Of a stretch of DNA of 64,000 nt, positions 55,056-63,060 are shown in pieces. Position numbers and translations under genes: made by a program. Positions within the stretch are counted from its first letter, which is position 1, and each line of letters opens with the position of its first letter. This DNA comes from Candidatus Saccharimonadota bacterium. GTDB taxonomy: Bacteria > Patescibacteriota > Saccharimonadia > Saccharimonadales > Saccharimonadaceae. Below the pieces are notes generated by a model. It saw only the letters and a program-made list of their open reading frames with translations. It was not told the DNA's origin and made no database searches. The stretch is taken from contig JAFVBJ010000003.1 of NCBI GenBank assembly GCA_017480035.1, positions 298,126-362,125 on the forward strand. Reading direction: 5' to 3'.

Positions 55056-56381
55056 ATGGCAACAAAATTAGAGGACATTGTTAGTTTATGTAAACGCCGC
55101 GGATTTATTTTTCCGGGCTCTGATGTTTATGGCGGTTTCGCTGGTACATGGGACTATGGCCCGCTTGGTGTTGCTTTGAAGAAAAAAATCATGAACGAAT
55201 GGTGGAAGTTCTGGGTTGAAGACCGCGACGATATGTTTGGCGTCGACGCCGCAATCATCATGAATCCAAAAACCTGGGTTGCTTCCGGTCATGCTGCAAC
55301 TTTTGCTGATCCTCTCGTTGAATGTCTCGAATGTAAGGGGCGTTTCCGCGCTGACAAACTTGCCGACGGAATTAATGAATCCGTCACGACCGAAGAATTC
55401 CATAACCTCCACGCAAAATGTCCGACTTGCGGCAAAGAAAATTGGGGCCCAATCAGAAAATTCAATATGATGTTCCAGACTCACGTTGGCCCAATCGTCG
55501 ACGACACTTCCGTCGCCTATCTTCGCCCAGAAACCGCGCAAGGCATTTTCACGAACTATAAAAACGTTGTTGACTCGATTTATCCTTCGATTCCATTTGG
55601 CCTCGCGCAACAGGGAAAAGCTTTCCGAAATGAGATTTCGCCACGCGATTTTGTTTTTCGTTCACGCGAATTCGAACAAATGGAGATTGAATATTTTGTT
55701 CACCCAGATACCTGGGAAGAGAATTTTGAAAAACTTTTGAAATCAGTTCACGAATTCCTTGAAGAAAAAATGGAAATTCCGGCCGAAAAAATTCACGAAC
55801 TTGAAGTTGCGCCGGAAGACCGCGCACATTATTCGAAGCGCACAATTGACGTCGAATTTGACTATCCAATCGGCCGCGAAGAGTTGATGGGAATTGCTTA
55901 TCGTACTGATTTTGACCTTGGAAACATCCAGCGTGAATCTGGAAAATCAATGGAATATCGCGACAAGATGACTGGCGAAACGTTTGTGCCACACGTTATC
56001 GAACCGTCATTTGGTGTTGAACGTCTTCTCATGGCTGTGCTCGCTTCGAGCTACACCGAAGAAGAAAAAGACGGAAAAACTCGCGTGCTTTTAAAGCTCC
56101 CGGAAACTCTCGCTCCGTTCAGATTCTGTGTTTCGCCACTTCTCAAAAACAAGCCAGAACTCGTTGAAAAAGCCAAAGAAGTTTATGATGCGCTTCGCGC
56201 AAAATATGGCAACGTGACTTGGGACGATTCCGGAAATATCGGCAAACGCTATATGAAACAAGACGAAATCGGAACGCCGAAATGTGTTGTTGTCGATTTC
56301 GATACTCTGGAAGATGGAACCGTCACGGTTCGCGACCGCGATATGACCGAGCAAACTCGCGTGAAAATCGAAGAACTCTAG
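55056..56381 (+). CDS. glyS: Glycine-tRNA ligase (alpha2, homodimeric type)
   Basis: LCKRRGF, WDYGPLG, YLRPETAQG, FRNEISPR, FEQMEIE, HVIEPSFGVER, QDEIGTP. Confidence 0.96.
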   Translation: MATKLEDIVSLCKRRGFIFPGSDVYGGFAGTWDYGPLGVALKKKIMNEWWKFWVEDRDDMFGVDAAIIMNPKTWVASGHAATFADPLVECLECKGRFRADKLADGINESVTTEEFHNLHAKCPTCGKENWGPIRKFNMMFQTHVGPIVDDTSVAYLRPETAQGIFTNYKNVVDSIYPSIPFGLAQQGKAFRNEISPRDFVFRSREFEQMEIEYFVHPDTWEENFEKLLKSVHEFLEEKMEIPAEKIHELEVAPEDRAHYSKRTIDVEFDYPIGREELMGIAYRTDFDLGNIQRESGKSMEYRDKMTGETFVPHVIEPSFGVERLLMAVLASSYTEEEKDGKTRVLLKLPETLAPFRFCVSPLLKNKPELVEKAKEVYDALRAKYGNVTWDDSGNIGKRYMKQDEIGTPKCVVVDFDTLEDGTVTVRDRDMTEQTRVKIEEL

Positions 56382-62610: not shown

Positions 62611-62684
62611 GGCGCTGTGGCGGAGTGGTTACGCAGAGGTCTGCAAAACCTTGTACACCGGTTCAATTCCGGTCGGCGCCTCCA
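62611..62684 (+). tRNA. tRNA-Cys(GCA)
   Basis: GGCGCTG/CGGCGCC acceptor, U73, GAGGT-CT GCA AA-ACCTT, CCA. Confidence 0.95.
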
Positions 62685-62764
62685 CGACGAATGAAAGCAA
62701 GCTTTCTTCGTCGTGTTCGGCACCTTGATTGCCTAACGGTAAAACGGCGCCTCCAAATTTATTA

Positions 62765-62849
62765 GCCCTGGTGGCGGAATTGGTATACGCGTTCGACTTA
62801 AAATCGAATGGAGAAATCCATATGGGTTCAAGTCCCATCCGGGGCACCA
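62765..62849 (+). tRNA. tRNA-Leu(TAA)
   Basis: GCCCTGG/CCGGGGC acceptor, TTCGA-CT TAA AA-TCGAA, CCA. Confidence 0.95.
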
Positions 62850-62939
62850 CTGGTACGACCCGCACCATCGCGGTGAAAACATTAAAAGAAAAATAGCTTG
62901 AAATATCATCAAAATTTGTTATAATAAACATACATTCAT

Positions 62940-63016
62940 GCGAATGTAGCTCAGTTGTTTAGAGCGCTTCCTTGCCAAGGAAGAGGTCGAGAGTTAGAGT
63001 CTCTTCATTCGCACCA
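62940..63016 (+). tRNA. tRNA-Gly(GCC) with U19/A56 and A73
   Basis: GCGAATG/CATTCGC acceptor, CTTCC-TT GCC AA-GGAAG, T-loop TTAGAGT, CCA. Confidence 0.92.
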
Positions 63017-63060
63017 CTAAGTGCCGGTTGACCCCCCTCAGCCGGCACTTAGTGGTTTTA
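63013..63060 (+). terminator. Long hairpin terminator overlapping the tRNA-Gly ACCA end
   Basis: ACCACTAAGTGCCGGTTGA/TCAGCCGGCACTTAGTGGT followed by TTT. Confidence 0.75.

Follow-up and report, generated by a model that had tools for sequence, protein, structure and literature searches.

A compensated U19-A56 elbow pair and a class-wide A73 in a probable housekeeping tRNA-Gly(GCC) of Saccharimonadia

The tRNA-Gly(GCC) described here is most likely (probability about 0.85) an ordinary housekeeping tRNA of protein synthesis, which carries a lineage-specific, compensated U19-A56 pair at its elbow and a discriminator A73 common to its class. The pair G19-C56 is taught as a near-universal contact of tRNA and is a landmark for RNase P, the ribosome, T-boxes and several enzymes. 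The gene was found in the window, by which we mean the whole stretch of 64,000 nucleotides that was analysed. The host is a gut Saccharibacterium of the class Saccharimonadia, phylum Patescibacteria, and its close relatives are named Candidatus Nanosyncoccus. Its genome of 772.8 kb is contained in 3 contigs, is 97.5% complete and encodes 45 tRNAs. The first-pass annotation had regarded the tRNA as functional but orthogonal-looking, and possibly as specialised or as evading host or phage factors. The present analysis supports its functional status. On the other hand, the A/U elbow pair and A73 are inherited traits of the whole class and not those of a special gene copy.

Results

The tRNA-Gly(GCC) gene was located on the forward strand at 62940-63016 by ARAGORN and Rfam RF00005. 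It is 77 nt long, and its CCA end is encoded (63014-63016, forward strand). The score against RF00005 was 70.1 bits with an E value of 3e-13, where the gathering score is 29, and it was the second best among the 8 tRNAs in the window. Membership of the family was thus indicated by the cloverleaf, by a score above the threshold and by the agreement of ARAGORN. The anticodon GCC at 62974-62976 (forward strand; direct reading and ARAGORN) reads GGC and GGU. The D-loop AGTTGTTTA occupies 62953-62961 on the forward strand, with G18 at 62957. The T at 62958, within the D-loop AGUUGUUUA, is position 19, which is U in place of the canonical G. The T-loop TTAGAGT (UUAGAGU in the RNA) at 62994-63000 on the forward strand provides U54, U55, A56, G57 and A58. 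Position 56 at 62996 (forward strand) is A in place of the canonical C, and both the reading of the sequence and covariation make it the Watson-Crick partner of U19. In the conserved elbow set of RF00005, therefore, G18, U54, U55 and A58 are kept, while G19 and C56 are replaced by the complementary U19 and A56. The other tertiary partners are canonical at the sequence level (U8, A14, G15-C48, G18, U54, U55, A58, G53-C61, and G10-C25 with G45).

The glycine identity rules consist of G1-C72, C2-G71, G3-C70, C35, C36 and G10-Y25 with G45 (PMC9976931). The tRNA carries the complete set, the last element as G10-C25 with G45, and G51-C63 is present as well. The discriminator at 63013 (forward strand) is A73, whereas U73 is the bacterial norm. 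All the statements of the first-pass annotation on U19, A56, A73 and the first three acceptor pairs were correct according to the sequence, ARAGORN and RF00005. Minimum free energy folding of the bare sequence did not give the cloverleaf. Such a miss is usual for single tRNA sequences, and the result was overridden because the covariance model supports the cloverleaf.

A sigma-70-like promoter candidate, TTGAAA-16 nt-(TG)TATAAT, lies at 62898-62925 on the forward strand and ends about 14 nt upstream of the 5' end of the gene; it is a consensus match only, at 11 of 12 positions. At 63014-63055 on the forward strand, an inverted repeat with perfect arms of 14 bp, CCACTAAGTGCCGG / CCGGCACTTAGTGG, encloses a loop of 14 nt and is followed by TTTT. 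It is probably a terminator or a processing hairpin, judged from its sequence. The strict terminator scan listed nothing after the tRNA gene, and this hairpin was passed over because its loop exceeds 8 nt and no more than 4 T come after it. Its left arm includes the CCA end of the tRNA, and the primary transcript is therefore predicted to sequester the CCA. Upstream, tRNA-Cys(GCA) and tRNA-Leu(UAA) were identified by ARAGORN at 62611-62849 on the forward strand, both with canonical GG/UUC elbows. The cluster of these two genes with tRNA-Gly(GCC) is syntenic across orders of the class.

In the tRNA set of the genome, 41 of the 45 members combine a D-loop GG with a T-loop UUC. The four others are tRNA-Gly(GCC) with U19-A56, tRNA-Ala(UGC) and tRNA-Ala(CGC) with A19-U56, and tRNA-Gly(CCC) with C55. 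All three tRNAs with an altered position 56 bear the complementary base at position 19. The genome has one gene each for the glycine anticodons GCC, UCC and CCC, and A73 is present in all three. A second GCC tRNA, which the first-pass annotation had suggested looking for, was not found among the 45 tRNAs of this 97.5%-complete genome. In 412 long open reading frames, GGC and GGU amount to 68% of the glycine codons and 4.4% of all codons. The gene, being the only one for an anticodon whose codons are in use, has the profile of a proteinogenic isoacceptor, and it should be the essential GGY decoder because no other GCC gene serves these abundant codons. Function is thus supported by the sole gene, the codon share, the covariance-model score and the conservation described below. 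G51-C63 and G49-U65 of the tRNA resemble those of E. coli tRNA-Gly. Charging by the glycyl-tRNA synthetase (GlyRS), binding to EF-Tu and use on the ribosome would be expected.

Two elbow readers were found in the genome, RNase P RNA of type A (215 bits) and TruB (226 bits), while TrmFO was not found there. The T-box family RF00230 had no match in the genome or the window, and neither upstream of glyS nor elsewhere was a leader seen that could sense this tRNA. T-box control of tRNA-Gly(GCC) or glyS was therefore rejected.

Several other tRNAs of the genome are unusual in themselves. The two alanine tRNAs with A19-U56 lie outside the window, tRNA-Ala(UGC) at G000:C2:4258-4334 and tRNA-Ala(CGC) at G000:C2:247096-247171; their D-loops are AGCUGAUUA and AGCUGAUA and their T-loops UUUGAAU and UUUGAUU, respectively. 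A third one, tRNA-Ala(GGC), has a canonical elbow in the source genome and A19-U56 in many relatives. The tRNA-Gly(CCC) at G000:C3:377099-377173 has the T-loop UCCGACU, with C55 for the universal U55, and a weak D-stem. Pseudouridine 55 is not possible in it because of C55. Its orthologue in genome G103 has a normal UUCGAUU loop. Finally, a second tRNA-Pro(CGG) at G000:C2:256906-256981 has two acceptor-stem mismatches (CAAAGUA / UACCCUG) and may be a decaying duplicate.

An error of assembly or sequencing, or a decaying pseudogene, could in principle produce a tRNA with an unusual elbow. However, the 77-nt gene recurs with 100% identity in 12 further genomes of the genus. The acceptor and T stems of more remote members of the genus and order have diverged through compensatory substitutions, yet U19 and A56 are constant, and the conservation extends over the class. 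Contigs from three other metagenome runs (X2, X4 and X5), which come from two studies on animal gut or similar samples, span 62939-63016 without any alternative letter, at 62958 and 62996 as elsewhere; neither G19 nor C56 was seen in them. In the one RNA run compared, X17, no contig fell on the gene, which speaks neither for nor against expression. The covariance-model score of 70.1 bits is also high. No support for an artefact or a pseudogene was found, and this explanation, which the first-pass annotation had kept in view as an assembly error, is refuted with hardly any residual probability. In the gut metagenome contigs, the word depth was 150-390x on the tRNA gene against 7-11x on its flanks. 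Therefore, the identical gene is common to many co-resident strains, which explains why many MAG contigs break inside it.

The distribution of the 19-56 pair was determined in the phylum, in the class and among prokaryotes. The phylum search covered 301 genomes with a pattern anchored on the anticodon arm and the T-loop of Gly-GCC. It returned 12 genomes of the class of the window, 2 of them from other orders, and all of them have A73 and a 19-56 pair other than G-C. About 40 tRNA-Gly(GCC) of other classes all have U73, and they have G19-C56 except for three with A19-U56. These three are independent cases in three other families of the phylum. Locus L200 (G310:C1:52553-52787) was left out of these counts. 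It is called Gly(GCC), belongs to Patescibacteria, and is unlike its neighbours in having a 13-nt D-loop, the acceptor GGGGGCA/UGCCCCC and A73.

In the class survey, 125 of 151 genomes have a tRNA bearing A or T at both 19 and 56, and by hand count 150/150 of the matches listed are complementary. Among these matches, about 70 are tRNA-Gly(GCC) with U19-A56 and about 45 are tRNA-Gly(GCC) with A19-U56; the rest are 31 tRNA-Ala (all A19-U56), 2 tRNA-Gly(CCC) with U19-A56, 1 tRNA-Thr and 1 tRNA-Val. The Gly-GCC pattern with C56 or G56 gave nothing in the 151 class genomes but 6 chance matches that lack the anticodon stem, and G19 with A or U at 56 was not found in tRNA-Gly(GCC) of the same genomes. 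Class genomes without a pattern match have the gene split at contig ends, and a different elbow in them was ruled out for this reason. The two orientations, A-U and U-A, are mixed among the families and stand side by side even in single families and in one genus (f148 g296, f24, f153 and f154). For instance, L291 and L129 are identical except at 19 and 56, and L184 and L023 are identical except at 19 and 56 and for one extra U in the D-loop. A 747-kb contig of genome G288, from another order of the class, encodes 43 tRNAs, among which the A/U pair occurs in tRNA-Gly(GCC) only, and its tRNA-Gly(UCC) has A73. The change in tRNA-Gly(GCC) is therefore the oldest and of class level, and the alanine variants are younger. 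BLAST-type searches of five relatives gave nothing with tRNA-Gly(UCC) and two hits with tRNA-Gly(CCC), but short divergent tRNAs escape BLAST.

Some neighbouring observations concern gene duplication. The cluster L291:1-354 (G443:C42) contains both alleles: a U19-A56 copy that has G32 and is truncated by the contig start, then tRNA-Val and tRNA-Phe, and then an A19-U56 copy. At L289:1383-1568 (G386), an extra tRNA-Gly(UCC) with U19-A56 and the T-loop UUAAAGC lies just upstream of tRNA-Gly(GCC). Duplicates of the tRNA-Gly(GCC) gene therefore do arise. A tRNA-Cys of G288 (G288:C2:624137-624210) has the T-loop UGCAAAU with G55 and the D-loop AGGAGUU, and represents a different kind of elbow rewiring.

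Prokaryotes at large were scanned with one genome per species and fixed D-arm patterns that allow A or T at 19 and 56. At least 120 tRNAs were obtained, and among the matches listed 99 have A19-U56, 21 have U19-A56 and none has a mismatch. With regard to isotype, 81 of these listed matches are tRNA-Gly and 29 are tRNA-Ala, together 110/120. The glycine set includes UCC species of Bacteroidia, cultured Bacteroides among them, and the alanine set includes CGC species of Opitutae. Saccharibacteria tRNA-Gly(GCC) account for 19 of the 21 cellular U19-A56 cases among the matches listed. The same pattern on viral contigs gave at least 117 tRNAs of many isotypes, all complementary among the matches listed. 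Taken together, 237/237 of the listed cellular (120) and viral (117) matches are complementary at 19-56. The pairing is therefore not due to chance, and the compensatory nature that the first-pass annotation gave to the pair holds, as it does for the three position-56 variants of the source genome. Compensated A/U elbow pairs are common in nature, and only the U-A orientation in tRNA-Gly(GCC) is lineage-specific. U19-A56 is the majority state in the class and A19-U56 occurs in cultured Bacteroides and many lineages; that the variant be common was a circumstance which the first-pass annotation itself had named as speaking against its reading. In the open-access literature, natural tRNAs with A19-U56 or U19-A56 were not found to be discussed, and G19-C56 is treated as conserved.

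Discriminator A73 was considered together with the synthetase. In tRNA-Gly the discriminator is U73 in bacteria and A73 in archaea and eukaryotes (PMC9976931), and the first-pass annotation had accordingly called A73 archaeal or eukaryote-type. The tRNA of the window is like archaeal and eukaryotic tRNA-Gly in A73, but it differs in its synthetase. The GlyRS gene that the first-pass annotation had placed in the window was confirmed at 55056-56381 on the forward strand as an open reading frame encoding 441 aa, which is of the bacterial alpha2 type (TIGR00389, 483 bits summed). Its best solved relatives are bacterial alpha2 GlyRS with E values of 1e-123 to 1e-112, compared with 6e-91 for Nanoarchaeum and 1e-60 for human. 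It shares 57-64% identity with the enzymes of other orders of the class and 48-52% with those of other classes that have U73 tRNAs. An archaeal origin was rejected, since the nearest relatives are bacterial alpha2 and sister-class enzymes. Besides, A73 is not confined to the three glycine tRNAs of the source genome but was found elsewhere in the class, where other orders and families have it in Gly(GCC), Gly(UCC) and Gly(CCC). The glycylation system with A73 thus does not have the archaeal or eukaryotic composition, as its GlyRS is nearest to bacterial alpha2. The type of GlyRS was also rejected as the cause of A73. The alpha2beta2 form (glyQ) is present in only 2/301 phylum genomes, and the type cannot explain the base because the A73 and U73 classes all use alpha2. 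By these comparisons, the switch to A73 took place at the level of the class, on the background of a bacterial alpha2 GlyRS of apparently vertical descent, and is convergent with archaea and eukaryotes. No paper on the discriminator base in Saccharibacteria was found in the open-access literature.

Discussion

The overall result is best explained by an isosteric exchange at the elbow of a housekeeping tRNA. A Watson-Crick U19-A56 pair in place of G19-C56 would form the outermost tertiary pair of the elbow. [quoted passage not shown] Because elbow closure and the stacking face would be kept, the tRNA would fold, be processed, be charged by the alpha2 GlyRS of the window and be used on the ribosome as any elongator tRNA. 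It is consistent with this that molecules which recognise the elbow do so mostly by stacking against the flat surface of the pair (PMC4810234, PMC3664808). Charging of Aquifex tRNA-Leu is lost with G19C and regained in the engineered G19U:C56A, at a relative kcat/Km of 0.54 (PMC2377443). This Aquifex aeolicus double mutant carries the same replacement pair, which restores the tertiary pair and the aminoacylation lost in the single mutants. However, it is a laboratory construct of another isotype and concerns LeuRS only, whereas the pair of the window occurs naturally, is fixed and extends over the class. T-loop enzymes with a preference for C56 might be impaired by A56.

Compared with the canonical bacterial tRNA-Gly(GCC) of E. 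coli and Thermus thermophilus, the tRNA shares the class I cloverleaf, the anticodon GCC, G1-C72, C2-G71, G3-C70, C35, C36, G10-C25 with G45, G18, U54, U55, A58, and G49-U65 with G51-C63. As in Thermus, the charging enzyme is predicted to be a bacterial-type alpha2 GlyRS. The differences are U19-A56 for G19-C56 and A73 for U73. Natural A19-U56 tRNAs provide a further comparison. They include tRNA-Gly(UCC) of Bacteroidia (with the cultured Bacteroides clarus and B. oleiciplenus), tRNA-Ala(CGC) of Opitutae, some tRNA-Gly(GCC) of Clostridia and many phage tRNAs. They are likewise A/U Watson-Crick swaps in otherwise normal, lineage-wide housekeeping tRNAs, mostly of Gly and Ala. Unlike the tRNA of the window, they have the opposite orientation, and their glycine tRNAs keep U73.

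A specialised role was part of the first-pass reading. The tRNA could be a glycine donor for Fem-type cell-wall transferases, or a copy outside translation that escapes host or phage factors. Three points favour it: four FemAB-family genes in the genome, the confinement of its position-56 elbow variants to Gly and Ala tRNAs, which are the usual Fem donors, and the location of the S. aureus determinants of Fem preference in the D and T arms (PMC7826273). The FemAB-family genes, whose products would form an aminoacyl-tRNA-dependent peptidoglycan branch, lie at G000:C2:24029-25087, C2:320460-321407, C2:321467-322450 and C3:101588-102487. The Fem ligases that the first-pass annotation had proposed to look for are thus present, but they do not follow the elbow. 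FemAB occurs in 276/301 phylum genomes irrespective of elbow type, including classes with canonical G19-C56/U73 tRNA-Gly (the count contains the unpublished genome G194, on which no claim depends). Conversely, genomes G103 (100% complete) and G330 (99%) have the U19-A56 tRNA and no FemAB match. Bacteroides have A19-U56 in tRNA-Gly(UCC), yet the B. thetaiotaomicron control gave no FemAB match. A Fem-ligase link was rejected as the explanation of U19-A56. Apart from this question, the 276/301 genomes with FemAB suggest that branched peptidoglycan is the rule in Patescibacteria, and four such genes in a genome of 0.77 Mb may be recorded here.

The staphylococcal NP1-3 tRNA-Gly are additional copies that have a UCC anticodon and a UGC or UGU T-loop and are used by FmhB/FemA/FemB (PMC7826273). 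The tRNA of the window resembles them in that it is a glycine tRNA whose D- and T-loops are altered and whose organism encodes Fem transferases. In the NP tRNAs, however, the elbow is uncompensated and U55 is lacking; they bind EF-Tu poorly and are confined to staphylococci. In contrast, no additional isoacceptor exists here, the T-loop is UUAGAGU with U54 and U55 kept, the 19-56 pair is compensated, and the tRNA is the sole decoder of the abundant GGY codons. Considering the copy number and the distribution, with A73 class-wide and the GlyRS bacterial, the specialised or orthogonal reading is largely refuted and very improbable. What the first-pass annotation cited as background, namely U73 against A73, the readers of the elbow and the staphylococcal cell-wall tRNAs, is right (PMC9976931, PMC4810234, PMC7826273).

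The housekeeping reading leaves room for the question of how the U-A form arose. One answer, compatible with that reading and concerned only with origin, is that temperate phages which use the tRNA-Gly(GCC) gene as their integration site brought in or spread the U19-A56 allele. The attP of such a phage would repeat the tRNA sequence from the D-loop or the anticodon loop up to the 3' end, and integration would overwrite the 3' part of the host gene. With a crossover 5' of position 19, both partners would be swapped in one step. This is in keeping with L296:1114-2187, which is the viral contig IMGVR_UViG_3300029969_000036. A tyrosine integrase and a portal gene there adjoin a 42-nt copy of positions ~35-76, which is identical to the allele of the window, A56 included. 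By its sequence, the copy is probably the attP of a temperate phage integrating into the tRNA-Gly(GCC) of the window. With matched patterns differing only at 56, 41 viral stretches had A56 and none had U56, where the ratio in the cellular class is about 70:45. The viral copies begin at positions ~14, 17-18, 22, 26 and 30-35, and several contigs have a copy at each end. Since the starts reach back to ~14, some copies hold both U19 and A56. In L423 an integrase lies beside a near-full pseudo-copy. Moreover, an identical 49-nt core (positions 10-58) is shared by the distant families f1 (genus g1), f20, f146 and f148, while nearer genera differ.

These observations have to be read with caution. 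One data set accounts for 25 of the 41 viral stretches, which makes a bias of habitat or sampling likely, and phages may simply copy the allele of their hosts. In the source genome, no 14-mer of tRNA-Gly(GCC) has a second copy. Therefore, no prophage is present at this gene now, and a resident prophage was rejected. We regard the phage origin as a possible but rather unlikely account of the U-A form. In two relatives, at L007:1332-1531 (G021) and L003:1368-1559 (G007), two tandem units were seen directly downstream of an identical tRNA-Gly gene. The units of G021 measure 83 nt and those of G007 64 nt, and each consists of the last 31-34 nt of the tRNA and a hairpin complementary to the T arm. 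Such units are absent at the copy of the window.

Within the class, tRNA-Gly(GCC) is never G-C at 19-56, and yet its orientation between A-U and U-A changes many times. Plain neutrality among Watson-Crick pairs would not predict this state because the route through G-U to G-C is mutationally easier. Something may therefore favour or entrench A/U at this position. The identity of the bases itself could be selected in Saccharimonadia, in that a weaker pair is favoured or a base-specific reader disfavours G-C; candidate readers would be the A73-shifted GlyRS, a T-loop enzyme, a nuclease or a toxin. Selection of this kind accords with the absence of C56, G56 and the G19-U56 wobble from the tRNA-Gly(GCC) of 151 class genomes, and with the presence of both orientations within single families and one genus. 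The joint appearance of the A/U pair and A73 at class level and the concentration of cellular A/U elbows in Gly and Ala tRNAs (110/120 among the matches listed) point the same way. Against it, the tRNA-Gly(UCC) of the source genome and of G288 and the tRNA-Gly(CCC) of G103 combine G19-C56 with A73. GlyRS thus accepts both kinds of elbow, because A73 tRNA-Gly with G19-C56 exist in the class. Relatives are not independent samples, and the switches of orientation may come from phage-mediated or paralogue replacement. Furthermore, three other families of the phylum have A19-U56 with U73, and the same pairs occur in phage tRNAs of many isotypes. We consider selection of the A/U identity quite improbable on balance; it and phage replacement do not exclude each other. 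A joint version, in which the sole GGY tRNA of Saccharimonadia is locked to an A/U-only elbow and its repeated orientation switches are driven by integrating temperate phages, is speculative and doubtful. If it were true, lysogeny would replace the two bases of an essential tertiary pair at once and would spread the phage allele between distant hosts.

Returning to the housekeeping reading, the result for the tRNA-Gly(GCC) of the window is mostly deflationary, in that a normal tRNA and not a new kind of element would have been found. It is a modest curiosity for the evolution of tRNA identity and a natural case of covariation. When CPR genomes are annotated, tRNAs of this type should be marked neither as pseudogenes nor as 'special'. 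A whole class has its sole GGC/GGU decoder on U19-A56 or A19-U56 with perfect covariation, which is natural evidence that pairing matters at 19-56 and base identity does not. In addition, the change from U73 to A73 on the background of a bacterial alpha2 GlyRS would offer a clean system for studying how the glycine identity rules evolve.
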